Below, one piece after another: positions 3,051 to 41,286 of a stretch of DNA of 41,286 bases. Both the position numbers and the translations under genes were made by a program. Location: IMG/VR virus record IMGVR_UViG_2565956711_000007, one strand, 5' to 3'. The stretch comes from a virus (taxonomy: Duplodnaviria > Heunggongvirae > Uroviricota > Caudoviricetes). Under the pieces are notes generated by a model that saw only the letters and a list, made by a program, of their open reading frames with translations, made no database searches and was not told the DNA's origin. Numbering within the stretch: the stretch's first letter is position 1; the number at the start of each line of letters is the position of its first letter.

Positions 3051-3329
3051 TCATTTTTCCTCTTTTGGTTTATGAATCTGAATGGTCATGCCGCTTTGAG
3101 TGGTGACTACAATGACAGAACCAGGCTGAAGACTGTTAAGATTGAATGCTTCGTAAAACGAATCCAAGGCCAGCGTTTTTTTATTCTTTCGGTTCCACCA
3201 ACGCCATCCCTTGCTACAGGCTACACTGACAATCCACTGCCCACTCCTGTAAGCCATATAAAACCAGATGAGCAAAACCTGAAGGAATGCTATCCAGTCA
3301 ATAATCGTATATTTCGCGAAGGAGTCCAT
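3051..3329 (-). CDS. Hypothetical membrane protein (N-terminal TM helix, beta-rich C-terminus)
   Basis: ATG at 3329 with AGGAGG 7 nt upstream; hydrophobic segment YTIIDWIAFLQVLLIWFYMAY; start overlaps upstream stop (TGATG). Confidence 0.5.
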   Translation of the reverse strand: MDSFAKYTIIDWIAFLQVLLIWFYMAYRSGQWIVSVACSKGWRWWNRKNKKTLALDSFYEAFNLNSLQPGSVIVVTTQSGMTIQIHKPKEEK

Positions 3330-4564
3330 CACTTCACCTCCTGCTGCGGTGCTGCTGGCATTTCACGCCAGTGCGTAACTGAGTGCGGATCCGGATATTC
3401 GGTGCCATCATCCCAGCGATTGCCATTCCACATTGCAGACCACATCTCACCGTCTTCATACATGACCATTACCGGAATTAACTTATCCGGCATTCGCTCA
3501 CTACAGCTTATCCAAGCATCCGGAGTTACCGGAGAATTGCCACCCTGAACAGTAGGCATATCCGGACCTTTGCGAATCGCCCTGGCAAGATCGATTGGGT
3601 CGTCGTACAACCAGTCACCTGTTTGCGGATGATTGGCTTCTGCCAATTGTGCAGCCCACTCCAGGCCGTCTTTGTGTCCTTGCAGATAGTCCAGCGGCAA
3701 CTCATCACGATTACTTACGGGTTCGATTTGTTCGGAATTACCGGACAACTGCATGGTACCTTCATTGGTGAGGGTACCATCTGCACCCTGAAGCATGGCG
3801 GCGCGGCAGGCATACTCAACGCCCTTAACTGCATCTGCGCAGTAGTTATAGCGATTGCATTCCACTAATTTCCGTTTGAGTTTTTCAATTGCCTGCGCGA
3901 CATCAGCCTGTATTACAGGAACTGGCGGAACGGCTGTTTGCTCTCGAACGTCATTAGTCGCTATCGGTTCTGCTGCCAACTGACTGGCATATTTGTTAAT
4001 GGTAACGATAAGCTCTTGCTCAGCCTCATCCAGACAATCACCGATACCTCGCCTGTCACCGTCAAAATCATCGAAATCGGCACGAATCTTGGCAACCTTC
4101 AGGATTGCGGACAACACCTCACTAGGAATTACCGGATAGTTGGTTGACGTTTCCGCGATTTCCCGAAAATTATTGGTTGACGAATTCTTGTTTTCCCGAA
4201 AGTTTCCGGACTGAAGCATGGCGGCGCGGCAGGCGTTCCAGCCTCTCACCTCTGCAATAGCGGCAACAGCATCAACCGTGTACATGCTAAGAGGATTAGG
4301 CATTGGTTTTTCTTCCGGTACTACTGGAACGGGGGGAGCGGCGTAGACCTCAATAATTCCATTATCAATAGGCCATTCTCCATCCTTGAGGTAGTCACTT
4401 GTGCCGTCAACTTGCTGTTCTGCAATGTGGAATGCACCTATTGGTTTTGCTTCGAGCGATGCCAGCGCAATCCGTGCCAGTTCCATTTGTTCACCACGGG
4501 TAAGCCCGTTTTCAAGCGGATTTTTAATGAACAATTCAATACGTTCTTTGGTAATAGTGCTCAT
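3329..4564 (-). CDS. Ea22-like accessory protein with internal duplication and DUF551-like C-terminus
   Basis: 411 aa; two copies of ACRAAMLQ motif encoded by a 24-bp perfect direct repeat (3788-3811 and 4211-4234); C-terminal W-rich region resembles phage DUF551. Confidence 0.55.
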   Translation of the reverse strand: MSTITKERIELFIKNPLENGLTRGEQMELARIALASLEAKPIGAFHIAEQQVDGTSDYLKDGEWPIDNGIIEVYAAPPVPVVPEEKPMPNPLSMYTVDAVAAIAEVRGWNACRAAMLQSGNFRENKNSSTNNFREIAETSTNYPVIPSEVLSAILKVAKIRADFDDFDGDRRGIGDCLDEAEQELIVTINKYASQLAAEPIATNDVREQTAVPPVPVIQADVAQAIEKLKRKLVECNRYNYCADAVKGVEYACRAAMLQGADGTLTNEGTMQLSGNSEQIEPVSNRDELPLDYLQGHKDGLEWAAQLAEANHPQTGDWLYDDPIDLARAIRKGPDMPTVQGGNSPVTPDAWISCSERMPDKLIPVMVMYEDGEMWSAMWNGNRWDDGTEYPDPHSVTHWREMPAAPQQEVK

Positions 4565-33757: not shown

Positions 33758-35062
33758 ATGGTTGTCGAACCTATTGATTATTCTGCGTCCACTGGTCGCG
33801 CACTGCTTCAAGGGCTTACTGCTGGCCGGGCAATTCAGGGGATGCGTCAAACTTCTCAGGAGATGGATGCGGCAGCACAGCAACGAGAGCGCCAGCAAGC
33901 CGCATATACTGCGTTGCAGAATGCCAGGCCGGAGGATTTACCAGCGCTGCGCATGCAGTATCCAGAGTTTGCAGATGTTATTCAGAAAGAAATCGGCATT
34001 CAGGATGCTGAACATGCAGCGTTCGTTAATAAGGCGCTCAATAACCTCTCGGTGGCCTATGCATCAGGTAACCCGCAGATGATGCAGCAAGCCATTCATT
34101 CCGGCGCCCCGGCATTAGCTTCGATGAATGTTCCAGCTGATGAAGCTTGGCAGCTCTATCAGAGCGATCCGCAGCAGTTCGGCTCCCTGTTGAAAGCGTC
34201 AATGTACGCAACGATGCCTATTGAGAAGCAGGTAGATGCGCAGCAGAAAGAAGCTGAACTTAAGGAGGACGCCCGCCAGGCTGACATGCAGAACGCCACC
34301 ACGCGACAGGGGCAGCAGCTCTCATATGGCGCTCAGATGGCTCGTCTGAATCACGATAAATACGTATACAGGCAGTCACAGGCGGCGCTTAAAAAATATG
34401 GCGACGTTCAGGACATGGACACCCTGGCGTTAAACTCTCAAATCGCCTCTACGGGAGTTGACCCTTTAACCGGCAAGCCAGCAACCGGCGCGCGAATGGG
34501 GCAGGCCAGAAAGTGGCTTGAGGGTAATAACGGCTATAACGAAGCGCTAATCACTGGCGAAAGGGGGATCGAGAAGATTGATTCCGTACTGGGTAAGCCA
34601 GAATTAGAAGGCATTGGCAGGTATGCGGGAAGGATGCCTGATGCAACCACCTCAGAAGAGGGCCTGTCGAACAGGAACGCCATTGAAGAGCTTAAGTCTG
34701 GCGCTTTCGTTCAGAACGTTCAGATGCTCAGAGGCTTGGGAGCACTGTCGAACGCAGAAGGCAGCAAGCTCGAAAACCTGATCGCCCGCCTCGATGTTAC
34801 ACAACCAGCTGACGTGGTGAAAAAGCAGCTTGGAGAAATTCGCAGCCAATATTCTGTACTGCAAAAGGTGGCAGGCCGTGAAGCTGAGTCCATGGGCTAC
34901 AGCTCGCAGGGTTACGATACCTATGTGTCAGAAAGGCAAGCGCAGAAGGATCAACCGCAGGCAGGCGCAGCAGGGCAGTCAACTCGTGAAGGCATGACAG
35001 CCACAAATCCAAAAACGGGGCAGCAAATCATTTATAGGAATGGGAAATGGCAACCGATGTAG
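33758..35062 (+). CDS. Ejection protein, gp20 position
   Basis: 434 aa from ATG 33758 (GAGGTG 5 nt upstream); by position. Confidence 0.65.
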   Translation: MVVEPIDYSASTGRALLQGLTAGRAIQGMRQTSQEMDAAAQQRERQQAAYTALQNARPEDLPALRMQYPEFADVIQKEIGIQDAEHAAFVNKALNNLSVAYASGNPQMMQQAIHSGAPALASMNVPADEAWQLYQSDPQQFGSLLKASMYATMPIEKQVDAQQKEAELKEDARQADMQNATTRQGQQLSYGAQMARLNHDKYVYRQSQAALKKYGDVQDMDTLALNSQIASTGVDPLTGKPATGARMGQARKWLEGNNGYNEALITGERGIEKIDSVLGKPELEGIGRYAGRMPDATTSEEGLSNRNAIEELKSGAFVQNVQMLRGLGALSNAEGSKLENLIARLDVTQPADVVKKQLGEIRSQYSVLQKVAGREAESMGYSSQGYDTYVSERQAQKDQPQAGAAGQSTREGMTATNPKTGQQIIYRNGKWQPM

Positions 35063-37017
35063 GATTACCTGAAGGTTTTGTACTGGATAGTCAGTCTGAC
35101 AATTCACAATTGCCAGAAGGTTTTGTGCTTGATTCGCAGCCATCTACTGATAATTCACTTGCATCAGGATATGCACAGCTTGCTACTCAGCAGAAGGAAG
35201 GTCTAGATCGCTCTGCTGAGCAAGGGGCTGGGTTAGGTGCTGCAATGCGCGATGCCGTTACTGGTGAAAGCCGGATGACACCAGAAATGGAGAGATTGCA
35301 AAATGTTGGTTCTGCTCCAGAGCTTAATAGCCTAAGCACCGACGCGCTGCGTGCTGGATGGGGTCAACTATTTGGCTCCGACGCTTCACAGGAGAAGATC
35401 CTACAAAGCATGGGCGGGAAAATCAGACAGGATGAGAAGGGTAATTCCATCGTCACTCTTCCTTCTGGCGAATATGCACTTAACAAGCCTGGCCTGTCAC
35501 CGCAGGATGTAACGTCATTCCTGGCAAACGCCCTTGCATTCACCCCAGCAGGCAGAGCAGGGTCTGTTGCAGGTGCAACGTTAAAGTCAGGTGCTACTGA
35601 TTTAGCCATACAGGGGGTTACACAGGCGGCAGGCGGTGAGGACATCAATCCAGCTCAAGCTGCAATTTCCGCTGGCCTTGGTGGGGTATTGAAAGGAGCT
35701 GAAAACACCGCAAGCGCTGTGTCCCGTTCGGCCATGGGTAAGATAGCACCTGAAAAGCAGGCGCAGATTGATTTTGCCAGGCAGAACAACCTGCCACTGA
35801 TGACAACAGATCTTGTGGAACCGGGAACAAATATTGGTAAGCAAGCACGAGCTATGGCTGAGCGAATCCCAATAGCCGGAACAGGTGGGATAAGAAATGC
35901 ACAGCAAAAGGCCAGGGAAGATTTAGTTAGAACATTTAGCGATAATGTTGGCGGAATATCTGACGCACAACTTTACCAATCAGCTACTCGTGGTCAGCAG
36001 CAATTTATTCAGGCTGCTGGCAAGAGGTACGACAGGATCATCAGTTTGATGGGGGATACTCCTGTTGACATCACTGGAACAGTGAAAGCAATTGATGATC
36101 AGATTTCCAAGTTAACTCGCCCAGGAGTATCGCAAGACCGCTCAGCTGTTTCTGTCCTTCAACAGTTTAGAAATGACATCACCAGCGGTCCAAATAACCT
36201 GCAATTAGCTAGAGAAAACCGCACAAACTTACGTAAGCGCTTTATGGCAGCACCTGACGAGGTCGATAGAGATACGCTGGAGAAAGCTGCGCAGTCTGTT
36301 TATAACGCATACACAACGGACATGAAAAAAGCGGTTGGCGCAAAACTAGGTGCGAAGGAAGCGCAAAACATGTCGCGTGTTGATCGTTCTTGGGCAAAGT
36401 TCAACGACATGATGAGCAATACACGTGTCCAAAAAGCTATTCAGAGTGGTAAAACAACGCCAGAAGATGTCACTAAACTAGTATTCAGCCAAAGCCCAGC
36501 GGAAAGGGCGCAACTTTATAGATTGCTTGATGACAAGGGGAGGCAGAATGCTAGGGCTGCAATTGTTCAAAGAGCCATGGATAAAGCTGTGAAACCTAAT
36601 GGGGAACTGAGCGTTGAGAATTTCATTAATGAAATGCATCGAAATAGGAAGCAGGCAGCGACTTTCTTTCGTGGTGAGCACGGAAAACAACTTGATGGGG
36701 TGATTAAATATCTTGACTCAACAAGGCAGGCGGCAACAGCAGCGGCTAGCCCTCTTACAGGACAAATGTTCGCTGGCCCAGCAGCCTTGGTGACAGCTCT
36801 AACCTCATCAATTAGCCCTCCAGTGGCAAAGGTAGCGGCAGTCGGCACTGCGATTGGGTTGGGTGGTAGAGCATATGAATCAAGAGCAATGAGAAATGCA
36901 TTGCTAAAACTTGCTAATACCCCAAAGGGAAGTACAGCCTATGATCGAGCTATCAGAAATGTATCTGAGAAACTAGCTCCAATAATGCAGGCCTCTGTTG
37001 AAAAGGGTCAGCAATGA
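35047..37017 (+). CDS. Ejection protein, gp16 position, with N-terminal duplicated LPEGFVLDSQ motif
   Basis: 656 aa; 30-nt direct repeat at 35065-35094 and 35110-35139. Confidence 0.7.
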   Translation: MATDVGLPEGFVLDSQSDNSQLPEGFVLDSQPSTDNSLASGYAQLATQQKEGLDRSAEQGAGLGAAMRDAVTGESRMTPEMERLQNVGSAPELNSLSTDALRAGWGQLFGSDASQEKILQSMGGKIRQDEKGNSIVTLPSGEYALNKPGLSPQDVTSFLANALAFTPAGRAGSVAGATLKSGATDLAIQGVTQAAGGEDINPAQAAISAGLGGVLKGAENTASAVSRSAMGKIAPEKQAQIDFARQNNLPLMTTDLVEPGTNIGKQARAMAERIPIAGTGGIRNAQQKAREDLVRTFSDNVGGISDAQLYQSATRGQQQFIQAAGKRYDRIISLMGDTPVDITGTVKAIDDQISKLTRPGVSQDRSAVSVLQQFRNDITSGPNNLQLARENRTNLRKRFMAAPDEVDRDTLEKAAQSVYNAYTTDMKKAVGAKLGAKEAQNMSRVDRSWAKFNDMMSNTRVQKAIQSGKTTPEDVTKLVFSQSPAERAQLYRLLDDKGRQNARAAIVQRAMDKAVKPNGELSVENFINEMHRNRKQAATFFRGEHGKQLDGVIKYLDSTRQAATAAASPLTGQMFAGPAALVTALTSSISPPVAKVAAVGTAIGLGGRAYESRAMRNALLKLANTPKGSTAYDRAIRNVSEKLAPIMQASVEKGQQ

Positions 37018-37034: not shown

Positions 37035-37136
37035 CTAGTTGCTTTCTAAATCTTTAACTCGCTTCTTGAGAGCCACTAACTCTGCATAGAGTGCGCAACA
37101 GGCTATGCCAAGCACGAATACGATTATTTCTAACAC
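37035..37136 (-). CDS. Putative small hydrophobic peptide (33 aa)
   Basis: GTG start with AGGAGG 5 nt upstream; MLEIIVFVLGIACCALYAELVALKKRVKDLESN; too short for the ORF track. Confidence 0.25.
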   Translation of the reverse strand: MLEIIVFVLGIACCALYAELVALKKRVKDLESN

Positions 37137-37160: not shown

Positions 37161-37346
37161 ATGACCATAGAAGAACGCCTGAACAACATCGAGTTGAATC
37201 AAACCCTGCTTGACCAGCGCCTTTCAGATCTTGAGCTTAAAGATCTTGATGCGCAAATATCAGAAGCAGAAGCCAAGCTCTCCAGCTTAAACCACCGTAA
37301 GAAGCAAATCCGCAATAGAATTACTCAGGGACGCGGAAGTTGTTGA
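37161..37346 (+). CDS. Hypothetical coiled-coil protein (61 aa)
   Basis: AAGGA 6 nt upstream of ATG 37161. Confidence 0.4.
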   Translation: MTIEERLNNIELNQTLLDQRLSDLELKDLDAQISEAEAKLSSLNHRKKQIRNRITQGRGSC

Positions 37347-37355
37347 AATCATAGT

Positions 37356-37673
37356 CTATTTTTTCTCAGAGCTCATATTGTAATAGGTGGTATAAATAGA
37401 GATTGATTTCTGACATGCTTCAAGAAATTGCTGCGGAGTCATCCCAAGCCTTGCTTGCTCTGTAGTAAGGAATCTCTGTAAGAATTCATTCCCACCCGGC
37501 ATGTTTGTAGATTCTTGGAATATTGCCATTTGTTTGATTGCACCACACATACCAGCCATTTTCGAAGCTATCATGAGGCCTTGTATTTCATCAAAACTGC
37601 TATCGTCTGATTTTGTTTCTGCGTTAGCTATGCTCGAGAGACACAGGAGCAATAGGATAGCGATACGTTTCAT
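37356..37673 (-). CDS. Secreted small protein (signal peptide, two Cys), co-transcribed with mnt
   Basis: MKRIAILLLLCLSSIANA signal; ATG overlaps mnt stop (ATGA); AT-rich. Confidence 0.6.
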   Translation of the reverse strand: MKRIAILLLLCLSSIANAETKSDDSSFDEIQGLMIASKMAGMCGAIKQMAIFQESTNMPGGNEFLQRFLTTEQARLGMTPQQFLEACQKSISIYTTYYNMSSEKK

Positions 37674-37921
37674 TTTTCACCATTGCCATGCATACATTTT
37701 AACTTCTCAACATCATGCTCAAGCTCTATCAGTCGCGATGCTATAGTTGCAAGATCTAGTGCTTGAATGTGTTTGTTTTTTTCGGTCCATGCTTCAAGTG
37801 CTGCGACCATCTCAGCATTTAATGAACGAGAATTAGCCTCAGCCAGTTCAATAAGACGTTCCTTTATCTCTACAGGAAGCCTCAGATTCACTTGAGGGTT
37901 TTTGTACTTACGATCAGACAT
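37670..37921 (-). CDS. mnt: Mnt-like ribbon-helix-helix repressor
   Basis: 83 aa (same as P22 Mnt); RHH N-terminus QVNLRLPVEIKERLIELAEANSRSLNAEMVAAL. Confidence 0.75.
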   Translation of the reverse strand: MSDRKYKNPQVNLRLPVEIKERLIELAEANSRSLNAEMVAALEAWTEKNKHIQALDLATIASRLIELEHDVEKLKCMHGNGEK

Positions 37922-38026
37922 CGGCGCATCCTGAATAATTTTTTACCACAGGATATGTAGGTATCTATTGACTATCAATGCGTACCTAAATACTATGTAT
38001 GCGTACCACATACAACGGAGGATGCA
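37922..38026. promoter_or_regulatory. Divergent Pant / Pmnt promoter and operator region
   Basis: Pant -35 TTGACT (37968-37973), 17-nt spacer, -10 TACTAT (37991-37996); palindrome ATTGA-CTA-TCAAT (37967-37979); direct repeats TGCGTACC at 37979-37986 and 38000-38007. Confidence 0.6.
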
Positions 38027-38167
38027 ATGAAGGTAAAAACACTGCGTATGCCAGAGAAGCTAGAAAAAATTCTTGAAGAAAAAGCAAAGGAAGAGTGTCG
38101 CTCATTCAGCGCAGAAGTAATTAAACGGGTGCTGGACAGCCTGAGGAGAGAGGGGATAACGGTGTGA
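38027..38167 (+). CDS. arc: Arc-like ribbon-helix-helix repressor
   Basis: 46 aa [46 protein letters not shown]; GGAGG 5 nt upstream; too short for ORF track. Confidence 0.7.
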
Positions 38168-38191: not shown

Positions 38192-38292
38192 CAAAACAGT
38201 GAAGCCCCAACTGCTGGAACAGTCAGGGCTTCGGTATCAACAAAACTTACGAGGTATTATTGATATGTCAAGCTTAGCAAAGTCAACTGTAA
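38192..38292 (-). ncRNA. Predicted sar-like antisense RNA covering the ant ribosome-binding site
   Basis: Minus-strand -35 TTGACG (38321-38326), 16-nt spacer, extended -10 TGcTATTAG (38299-38307); hairpin 38201-38232 then U-rich tract. Confidence 0.35.
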
Positions 38293-39155
38293 ATTGCACT
38301 AATAGCATCATCATTTCTGACGTCAAGATTCATATGGATTCAGAGGGTCGTTACTCGCTTAATGACCTTCATGTAGCATCTGGAAAGGAGGAAAAACATC
38401 AGCCAGCTTTCTTCATGCGTAGAAATGAAACTATTGAATTGATTAATGAAATTTTTAATTCTGCGGATATGCAGAATAAGAATCCCGTCCTTTCTAAGAA
38501 AGGTAGATATGGTGGAACCTACGTTTGCAAGGAGCTTGTTTACTCCTACGCCATGTGGATTAGCGCAGCCTTTGCGCTGAAGGTTATCCGTGCATATGAC
38601 GCAATGGTTACTACCACACAAGAGAGGAAGGCTATTGGCGGTAAAACTTCAGTAGCTGAACGCACACCGCTACGCGATGCAGTAAACATGCTGGTAGGAA
38701 AGAAAGGACTTCGCTATGACGATGCATACAATATGGTTCATCAGCGTTTTGGTATTGACAGCATTGATGAACTTTCAATTGAACAAATCCCGCTGGCCGT
38801 AGAGTACATCCACAGGGTAGTGCTTGAAGGCGAGTTTATCGGCAAACAAGAGAAGAAAGCAAACGAGCTTTCTGCAAAAGAAGCAAACAGCCTTGTATGG
38901 CTATGGGATTATGCTAACCGTTCACAGGCATTATTCCGCGAACTGTATCCGGCATTAAAACAAATTCAATCGAACTATTCCGGCAGATGCTACGACTACG
39001 GTCATGAATTCTCGTATGTTATCGGAATGGCGAGAGACGTTTTAATAAACCACACACGAGATGTTGATATTAATGAACCAGACGGACCAACGAATCTTTC
39101 CGCATGGATGAGACTTAAGAATAAAGAATTACCTCCTTCAGTACATAACTACTGA
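38265..39155 (+). CDS. ant: Antirepressor Ant-like protein with KilA-N-type N-terminal domain
   Basis: 296 aa from ATG 38265; follows arc as in P22 immI; N-terminal [10 protein letters not shown] motif. Confidence 0.7.
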
Positions 39156-39333: not shown

Positions 39334-41286
39334 ATGACAGACATTACAGCCAATGTTGTAGTGAGTATGCCTTCGCAACTCTTCACTATGGCACGTTCTT
39401 TTAAAGCCGTAGCCAATGGTAAAATTTATATCGGTAAAATTGACACTGACCCGGTAAATCCAGAAAACCAGATTCAGGTTTATGTGGAGAACGAAGACGG
39501 TTCTCACGTTCCTGTTTCGCAACCAATCATCATTAACGCTGCTGGTTATCCGGTATATAACGGACAGATTTCCAAATTCGTAACTGTGCAAGGCCATTCT
39601 ATGGCTGTTTATGATGCATATGGTGCTCAGCAATTCTATTTCCCTAATGTGCTGAAGTATGACCCTGATCAATTTTCTGTATGGGCAAAAAATCATTTCA
39701 GACTTAACTTCTATTTTAAGTCTGATATTAGTTTTTCATCAGGTGGACATATTGATGATGAGCGCTATGCTGTTCTTTATGATAACGATCCTGATGGAAA
39801 CATGTATTTTTATGCCAGGAAATATATAGCAGAAGGCGGTTATGATGTTGATGCTGGAAGCCATCCAGATGATAATTGGATATGCGTTGGACTACTTAAT
39901 GGCTTTAACTTAAACACCCCAGAGAACTTCGGCGCCAAACCTTATTCTGAAAGTGATTGTTTAAATGCAATTAACATGGCAATTAAAACAGGGTTTATTG
40001 AGTTAACGCCTGGTTGTACATATTTTGTTAGCGATGAAGTTGTTATCCCATCGTATTTAGTGATGGAAACAAACGGCGCAACTATTAAAGCGATGAGTGG
40101 CTATTCATGGGGTGGAAAGGCTGTAGTTCGCGCCAGCAAAAAACCAGTAGGAACATCCCCGGATCTTTCATTGCCTGAACAACAAGTTCGTGGAATTAGA
40201 CACATTGGTACATTAAATATTGATGCTAACAATGTTGCGCCTTACGGTTTTTATGGTTTTGGTGTAGTTGCAGAATCTGCCACAGACATTATATATGCTT
40301 ATAATGCCACAGAAGTTGGAATTGTACTTCTTGGGAGTTGGTATCATAAAGTAAATCAATATATGGGAATTGATTGTGCAAGAGGTGTATCTTTGGCGCA
40401 TGGTTTCTCCGGTGAAACCGGAGATGTAAACGTTAATGGTGTTGAATTTGGTGTCGTCGCCGCGTATAACACATCAAAATCTTTGTCCTATGGGTATGAT
40501 CCGTATTCATCATCTTTAACCCCACAACTCATAGGTGCCGGTGTCACCCTCGGGCAAGGATTGGCATCAAGAATAGGAACATTAATAGCTGAAACCACAG
40601 CAGGCGCTGGTTTAGCTACTGTTAACGCTGTTAGTTGGTCTGTTGGTTCTATGTACTTCGAAAAATGCAGTGAAGCGCTTGAAGATAGTGCAGAGCCTGA
40701 TATTGCGATATTATCAACTACAGGAAATGTCGAGGACCACGTATTTGACGTCGGTAATATCCATTTTGGCATAGGGACTGGTATACTGCAAAGAGCGACG
40801 GCAAGTGAGTTTCTCAACATCCAATCCATATACCGTATAGACAATAAAAAAACATGGCATAGTTCTTCAAAGGCGTCTTCAAGTTTTGTAAATTTCGTAA
40901 ACTATTACGTTCTCAACCCTTATGATTACGTTAAACCGGTTCAACTGACTAATGACGTAGGCAAGGATGTTATAAGTTCATCGGCAATGCTTAACTTTAA
41001 GGATTTTTCAAATACGCCAAATATCCCATTTTTTTATACTGGCGGTGATCTTGATATTAATATAAGCATATCAGAGGGTTCGATTATTGGGCTTGGTATT
41101 CAGGTTCAGTCTGAAGATGGAATTGAATATATAACATGCACATCATCACCGTTTTCAGCAAAGCTAACAAAAAGGAGAAATGCTTATTCTGTTTATTGGG
41201 TATCAATGGGAACTCCAGTTCAAGCAGCTACTGGCATGGGGGCGATTATAATAACAAAACAAAAAACTTCTCAATGGCTTCGTTAG
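39334..41286 (+). CDS. Tailspike protein (P22 gp9-type head-binding domain, divergent receptor-binding domain)
   Basis: 650 aa; first about 115 residues match recalled P22 tailspike N-terminus ([12 protein letters not shown]...[20 protein letters not shown]); remainder AT-rich and unrelated to what I recall of P22. Confidence 0.9.

Follow-up and report, generated by a model that had tools for sequence, protein, structure and literature searches.

A putative secreted three-helix protein encoded behind the mnt repressor gene of a P22-like Escherichia coli phage

The window analyzed here is a stretch of 41,286 nucleotides recorded in IMG/VR as IMGVR_UViG_2565956711_000007. It represents a P22-like (Lederbergvirus-type) E. 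coli phage or prophage whose structural genes share ~96% identity with their counterparts in phages IME10 and HZ41, with the immI region at its right end. On the minus strand of this region lies a gene for a protein of 105 amino acids (positions 37356–37673, start codon ATG at 37671–37673, stop codon TAG at 37356–37358), directly downstream of mnt. The mnt gene (37670–37921, minus strand) encodes an 83-residue repressor of the Arc/ribbon-helix-helix type (Pfam Arc, PF03869, 3e-10), and its DNA is ~95% identical to the mnt gene of CUS-3. The other parts of a Mnt/Arc immI module are in place as well, namely arc (38027–38167) and ant (38199–39155), both on the plus strand, and at 37950–37996 an overlapping, divergent pair formed by a Pmnt-like site (37978–37950, minus strand) and a Pant-like site (37968–37996, plus strand), which are consensus matches only.

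The two minus-strand genes overlap in the sequence ATGA (37670–37673), which contains the mnt stop codon TGA (37670–37672) and the downstream start codon, just as it had been read in an original prediction made from the letters of the window. A Shine-Dalgarno sequence, GGTGA, is located inside the last mnt codons (37677–37681, minus strand), 4 nt upstream of the ATG. A locus search with a 17-sequence alignment of the family revealed 43 IMG/VR viral contigs encoding relatives of the protein. The ATGA overlap behind mnt was identical in 22 of 22 P22-like contigs whose version of the protein is 100%, 99% or 72% identical. Four mnt alleles precede the gene: the window type, a P22-type (contig L012, 82% identical to P22 Mnt) and those of contigs L014 and L017; the Mnt types of L012, L014 and L017 are only ~30–35% identical to window Mnt. 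All four share the C-terminal tail M(H/Y)G(N/K)(G/D/S)(E/A)(K/E), which reads M-H-G-N-G-E-K in the window (37670–37695, minus strand; the other mnt alleles lie at 2401–2655 of L012, 4768–5004 of L014 and 4596–4844 of L017). Authentic P22 Mnt ends with DLYKKTT and does not possess this tail. The ~20 nt encoding the tail, that is the last ~7 mnt codons, also hold the Shine-Dalgarno sequence and the downstream start codon. Thus, a mosaic boundary lies within mnt, inside its 3' end, and the coupling moves together with the cassette. As far as we found, there is no earlier account of a cassette that is spliced into the end of mnt and follows at least four repressor alleles. The coupling to mnt that had been deduced from the window alone consequently extends over 22 loci and four Mnt alleles.

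The divergent pair upstream of mnt provided the only promoter-like sites, and the DNA from the Pmnt-like site down to the gene contained no further one. The lysogenic promoter of immI in P22 is Pmnt; Mnt keeps Pant repressed in favour of its own promoter, and Arc shuts off both. Co-expression with Mnt in lysogens is likely on these grounds. The earlier expectation that the protein is made in the lysogen and exported is plausible as an inference, with the only promoter-like sites upstream of mnt and a Pmnt that is lysogenic in P22.

The encoded protein begins with MKRIAILLLLCLSSIANA (residues 1–18, 37620–37673, minus strand), followed by ETK. This segment is composed of a KR n-region, a hydrophobic core of ~12 residues and A-N-A at −3/−1, after which a signal peptidase I cut is predicted. 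The export signal can be read directly as MKR, IAILLLLCLSSI and ANA, with the cut before E. The Cys within the signal peptide is not part of a lipobox. The 87-residue mature part (37359–37619) contains two Cys residues, C43 (codon at 37545–37547) and C87 (37413–37415), which are invariant family-wide. Direct reading thus agreed with the earlier description of a Sec signal peptide followed by a mature part of about 87 residues with two Cys. For the family, signal peptides were called by our own heuristic (n/h/c layout and small residues at −3/−1) and not by a trained predictor. By this heuristic, 220 of 220 typical members showed the n/h/c layout with small −3/−1 residues. An N-terminal hydrophobic stretch was found in 239 of 241 members and a lipobox-like motif in 4 of 241; P0147 with the lipobox-like LLVGC is a possible lipoprotein variant. 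We are confident that the window ORF encodes a real secreted protein, whose predicted destination is the periplasm by way of Sec. Since an invariant Cys pair, a signal peptide and exclusive occurrence in Gram-negative bacteria come together, a periplasmic disulfide would be the natural expectation. Cleavage was deduced solely from the −3/−1 rule, and the hydrophobic segment might instead act as an uncleaved signal anchor, so that the protein would be tethered to the inner membrane like the membrane-bound superinfection-exclusion protein SieA of P22 and would not be soluble in the periplasm. However, the core is short and is followed by a canonical A-N-A before E, and the small −3/−1 residues recur in all typical members, which makes such an anchor improbable.

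The protein matched phrog_19844, a PHROG of unknown function, over its full length (E 1.1e-69, residues 1–105 versus profile positions 1–105 of 105). All 17 diverse proteins tested, namely the window protein and 16 relatives, matched this PHROG and no other. A word-indexed search returned only ~10 close clusters, which come from E. coli, Salmonella and Citrobacter. An exhaustive HMM search against 1.84 billion representatives yielded 257 clusters at 50% identity, with E < 1e-10 for 164, and nearly all members are 95–115 amino acids long. Only Gram-negative lineages occur among the named sources (Escherichia, Salmonella, Citrobacter, Yersinia, Pseudomonas, Methylophaga, Nitrosomonas, Chromatiaceae, Oceanospirillales, Rhizobiales, Sulfurimonas, Deferrisomatales and Pseudobdellovibrionaceae), and every member from a named source carries the label "hypothetical". 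An alignment of 120 diverse members revealed C43, E72, R75 and C87 as invariant and K38, G41, G44, F52, Q53, T56, G60, G61, F64, R67, F68 and Y94 as kept in at least 90%. The family consensus is AK..G.CG...QM..FQ..TKM.GGDEF..RF..TEAARLG...(9)...C......Y; its conserved loop T-x-M-P-G-G-x-E-F is encoded at 37482–37508 (minus strand). The letters GGDEF in the loop consensus TKMPGGDEF are a coincidence and not a diguanylate-cyclase motif: the protein is exported, its mature part has 87 residues, and no GGDEF Pfam match was obtained. Comparison with a 72%-identical E. coli variant gave a dN/dS of 0.175 overall, 0.075 in the core and 0.39 in the signal peptide plus N-terminal segment. Mosaicism was also observed within the gene, where a signal peptide and N-terminal segment of the type found in phage Kapi1 are joined to a window-type core (P0006) or to a 72%-type core (P0010). 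The ORF is a real gene and not a chance ORF, because its dN/dS is low, its family comprises 257 clusters, 22 of 22 contigs retain the ATGA junction and an Arc-family gene stands alongside in the listed E. coli genomes.

Pfam and NCBIfam scans of the window protein gave no match, the anti-phage defence profiles of PADLOC-DB gave 0 families at E up to 1, and a Pfam scan of 120 relatives gave three single chance matches only. The structure was predicted with AlphaFold2. The full precursor with nine sequences reached a pLDDT of 74; the mature domain alone with 105 homologues reached a pLDDT of 89.5 and a pTM of 0.72 and was modeled confidently as an all-alpha three-helix bundle. The model helices comprise mature residues 6–38, 43–58 and 62–85. 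C43 is located in helix 1 and C87 in helix 3, and the TKMPGGDEF stretch runs from the end of helix 1 through the connecting loop into the start of helix 2. Many conserved polar residues share helix faces with core aromatics. In some family members, P0022 (202 amino acids) and P0156 (174 amino acids), the domain is present twice in tandem, a possible sign that proteins with one domain act as dimers. The structure prediction and fold search that had been proposed for this protein thus produced a confident three-helix model with generic helical matches only. Profile, sequence and fold searches did not reveal any characterized homologue, in line with the remark in the original prediction that the protein was not one to be recognized.

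The gene is part of a variable region. Upstream in window coordinates lie a gene 16-like DNA-transfer gene (35047–37017, plus strand), then orf33 (37035–37136, minus strand, the mnt strand), which has a GTG start, one transmembrane segment and a strong AGGAGG Shine-Dalgarno sequence and matches the first 32 positions of phrog_8100, and orf61 (37161–37346, plus strand), a coiled-coil protein of phrog_7586 with a weak XhlA-like match. The latter is convergent with the secreted-protein gene and separated from it by a 9-bp gap. No intrinsic terminator was found 3' of the secreted-protein gene on the minus strand, and because none intervenes a Pmnt transcript would run antisense through orf61 into orf33. 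On the other side of immI the tailspike gene starts at 39334 (plus strand). The gene had also been described as AT-rich. With 40.3% GC the ORF indeed lies below the window (47.7%), but it is not distinct from its neighbours, since the values for mnt (40.5%), ant (42.3%) and the tailspike gene (39.6%) are similarly low.

In P22, mnt, ORF59a and sieA are encoded on one strand, and the window gene fills the same slot between gene 16 and mnt. The statement that this neighbourhood of P22 holds superinfection-exclusion genes is correct insofar as sieA was found there on the mnt strand. SieA blocks the DNA conduit formed by gp16 and gp20, and sieA is present in only 22 of 66 P22-like phages (PMC10883804). 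In the P22-like prophage BTP1 the same interval, between gene 16 and gene 9, gives rise to a highly expressed lysogenic transcript which confers exclusion (PMC7067206). By tblastn, P22-type (type A) SieA was found neither in the window nor in the gene-carrying loci; types B and C were not searched directly. In the prophage of E. coli GPEC1405 (L002 1763–3820), a P63C-domain gene interrupted by an IS5-family transposase lies between gene 16 and orf61; the cargo of this interval is variable.

The gene was detected in 54 of 5,426 complete E. coli genomes (~1%), as a single chromosomal copy. An Arc-family gene overlaps or adjoins it in all 25 listed of these 54 carriers. The carriers include the lineage of the O104:H4 outbreak of 2011. 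In O104:H4 2011C-3493 the 72% variant is followed on the same strand by an annotated lipoprotein gene of 161 codons (O3K_RS07755, L064 3841–4326, phrog_6067, unknown function), so that the order in this prophage is mnt, secreted protein, lipoprotein. Only 2 of 50,697 deposited phage genomes carry the gene, Kapi1 and S.Kent 1-2-1, and no homologue was found on 72,556 plasmids with two different queries. A 47%-identical version, Kapi1_059 and its counterparts on 10 viral contigs (L041–L049, L051), occupies the same interval further along on the mnt strand, separated from mnt. In these loci the opposite-strand orf61 is mostly located between the gene and mnt, and another small signal-peptide ORF adjoins the gene. 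The interval between gene 16 and mnt of Kapi1 (L001) accordingly contains two adjacent signal-peptide ORFs, Kapi1_060 (3207–3389) and Kapi1_059 (3441–3749).

Further contexts were found outside the P22-like phages. Lambdoid siphovirus-type prophages of Yersinia carry an Arc-like gene of 148 codons, followed after 209 bp by a 50–61% identical homologue. The two genes diverge from antirepressor genes, and the module in its entirety sits within the tail gene cluster. In Pseudomonas-like prophage contigs the homologue stands on the opposite strand in a RecT/exonuclease early-left operon near a CI-like repressor, and in other contigs it is flanked by baseplate genes or by ejection-protein-like genes of another podovirus. 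The homologues of P. nitroreducens and Methylophaga are located in integrase-flanked islands, and the P. nitroreducens copy adjoins a CBASS system. This P. nitroreducens island (L003 3128–4665), flanked by integrase and resolvase genes, contains a CD-NTase and Cap15 pair and an HSDR_N-domain gene and has the look of a defence island. In an Oceanospirillales genome (L057 5028–6638) a second, N-terminally truncated copy adjoins an ORF of 404 codons which, judged by eye, resembles a group II intron reverse transcriptase. All-versus-all BLAST of the neighbours in 21 distant loci revealed no conserved partner gene; it returned only the family itself, lineage-specific prophage genes and spurious ORFs in overlapping frames. 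Judged by these positions, the gene behaves as a mobile accessory ("moron") cassette.

Several known systems invite comparison. T4 Spackle (Sp, gp61.3) is a periplasmic protein of ~100 amino acids with a cleavable signal peptide and Cys which excludes superinfecting phage by inhibiting tail lysozyme. The window protein is likewise phage-encoded, ~100 amino acids long and equipped with a signal peptide and Cys residues. An hhalign comparison with gp61.3 gave a probability of 2.3% over 3 aligned columns, and the protein does not belong to this family. Sim of P1 and Glo of the Vibrio phage K139 are prophage-encoded, processed by signal peptidase and block infection after adsorption by mechanisms that are unknown. 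They are larger than the window protein, which, together with its 16 relatives, matches only phrog_19844. The lysozyme inhibitors Ivy, MliC/PliC and PliG are small periplasmic proteins with an invariant loop as well, which in their case inserts into the active site of the enzyme. These inhibitors are beta-rich, whereas the model of the window protein is all-alpha, and neither the window protein nor 120 relatives matched the Ivy, MliC/PliC or PliG Pfam families. The known lysozyme-inhibitor families and T4 Spackle were thus unmatched, and the role in superinfection exclusion or lysozyme inhibition that had been suggested earlier gained no support from any evidence in this analysis. Like lambda bor and lom and Gifsy-2 sodCI, the gene is a single envelope-targeted accessory gene, probably expressed from the prophage, with variable insertion sites, often on the strand opposite to the phage operons; unlike them, the cassette of the window has no promoter-like site of its own and would rely on the mnt transcript, and there is no sequence relationship. 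P22 SieA resembles the window protein in the slot between gene 16 and mnt and in the use of the mnt strand, and it is expressed from the prophage and located in the envelope (PMC10883804). On the other hand, SieA has 3–4 transmembrane segments, lacks a signal peptide and blocks the gp16/gp20 conduit. The window protein is predicted to be a soluble helical domain of 87 residues and belongs to a family which is not restricted to P22-like phages. It does not fit the SieA family, which is marked by 3–4 transmembrane segments and an FxRYPxEAxxFNK motif: it has no similarity to P22-type SieA and only a single N-terminal hydrophobic segment.

The protein is probably a lysogen-expressed, exported envelope accessory ("moron") protein, which is the best-supported reading of the locus. 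In the full explanation that we favour, the gene would form the second cistron of a leftward Pmnt transcript and would be translationally coupled to mnt via the ATGA overlap. Synthesis of the protein would then accompany that of Mnt, which in P22 takes place in the lysogen. With a translation-initiation region built into the last ~7 mnt codons, the cassette would use the transcript and the ribosomes of mnt. The mature three-helix protein, probably disulfide-bonded, would act in the periplasm of the lysogen, bind there to a conserved envelope or phage component and thereby interfere with the periplasmic stage of infection by an incoming phage. The T-K-M-P-G-G-D-E-F loop and the polar cluster K38/Q53/R67/E72/R75 may form the binding surface. 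Superinfection exclusion would be the most economical specific function, since the gene occupies the P22 sieA slot, its regulation appears lysogenic, and T4 Spackle, P1 Sim and K139 Glo provide precedents. As a whole, this explanation is a tentative one to which we assign slightly less than an even chance. Exclusion at the level of the envelope is speculative, suggested by position and regulation only, and somewhat less probable again. It is doubtful whether the protein is the first recognized member of a broad family of periplasmic three-helix proteins from prophages and islands that stop phages of different morphotypes at a conserved envelope step of infection, for example when the cell wall is penetrated or the DNA conduit is assembled.

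Several observations weigh against exclusion by a lysogen-made factor. RNA-seq of a Kapi1 lysogen did not detect mnt (PMC12922286), so that expression in the lysogen cannot be assumed for every P22-like phage; to this extent the earlier statement on production in the lysogen cannot be generalized. The core motif is kept from Enterobacteria to Sulfurimonas, Nitrosomonas and Pseudobdellovibrionaceae and across podo-, sipho- and myovirus-type prophages. Because it spans phyla and morphotypes in this way, a ligand or a conserved target, either in the host or among the cell-wall enzymes, fits better than the fast-evolving ejection proteins, and a target specific to P22-like phages is argued against. 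Some copies are located in apparently non-mobile chromosomal contexts, that of Sulfurimonas with CMD, TetR and EamA neighbours (L006) and that of Pseudobdellovibrionaceae with scpA/scpB (L061). In the latter (L061 2168–4385), the homologue and a GIY-YIG-like ORF lie between genes which, judged by eye, resemble scpA and scpB. As many of the conserved polar residues share their helix faces with the core aromatics, they could be structural and not form a binding site. Fold and HMM searches against solved structures returned generic helical matches only, which gave no hint to a function, and a literature search by accession and locus tag retrieved no paper and no experimental data on any family member.

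Other functions were weighed on the same evidence. The invariant polar set K38, Q53, R67, E72 and R75 looks buried and could line a ligand site, and together with the wide distribution in environmental bacteria and the non-phage neighbourhoods in Sulfurimonas and Pseudobdellovibrionaceae it would suit a host-fitness factor, that is a periplasmic binder of a ligand or metal, a chaperone or a protein modulating an envelope sensor, which prophages would spread as a benefit to the lysogen, as do lambda Bor and Gifsy-2 SodCI. However, neither a conserved neighbour nor a sensor or transporter partner accompanies the gene, no CpxP/Spy, HdeA or metal-binding Pfam family was matched, and most loci with a readable context are prophages or integrase-flanked islands, so that we consider such a factor rather unlikely. 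The protruding, strongly conserved loop between helices 1 and 2 would also be compatible with a periplasmic inhibitor of peptidoglycan-cleaving enzymes, be they virion lysozymes or transglycosylases, type VI muramidases or amidases, or lytic transglycosylases of the host. Such an inhibitor would be Spackle-like or Ivy-like without kinship to either. The protein is small, periplasmic, Cys-containing and prophage-borne without a partner gene, and conservation across phyla and morphotypes suits a conserved active site; with the known inhibitor families unmatched and an all-alpha model, this function is unlikely. The same small chance applies to the corresponding mechanism, in which the invariant loop would block the conserved active site jointly with the E72/R75 pair.

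Periplasmic regulators of lysis such as T4 RI exist, orf61 next to the gene has its weak XhlA-like match, and Kapi1_061 carries an XhlA note from CDD. These points could speak for a role in the lytic cycle of the phage itself, for instance in lysis timing or in anti-holin, spanin or endolysin control. Yet the gene is coupled to a maintenance repressor and lies far from the lysis cassette of the window at about 19.9–21.1 kb, in other phages it is encoded on the strand opposite to the surrounding lytic operons, and it occurs in islands without lysis genes. A lytic role is consequently very improbable, and an exported accessory protein of the lysogen remains our preferred assignment.

As an element, the gene is of a familiar kind, namely a prophage moron that encodes an envelope protein and occupies the immI/sieA slot. 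The family to which the protein belongs is unfamiliar; it lacks a Pfam entry, and neither a structural relative, solved or annotated, nor any literature was found. Two thirds of the sequenced P22-like phages do not carry sieA (PMC10883804), and the contents of the slot are largely unannotated. With 87 residues, a confident fold and a sharp motif, the family is compact and easily testable. The junction embedded in mnt cleanly illustrates how the transcript and the ribosomes of a repressor gene can be taken over by an accessory cassette. If the protein indeed excludes phages or inhibits an enzyme as a soluble periplasmic factor, it would represent a new protein class in prophage-mediated defence and would provide a function for several hundred clusters of "hypothetical" proteins. 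In P22-like phages, an exclusion factor would then be hard-wired to Mnt, with the boundary of the cassette inside mnt.
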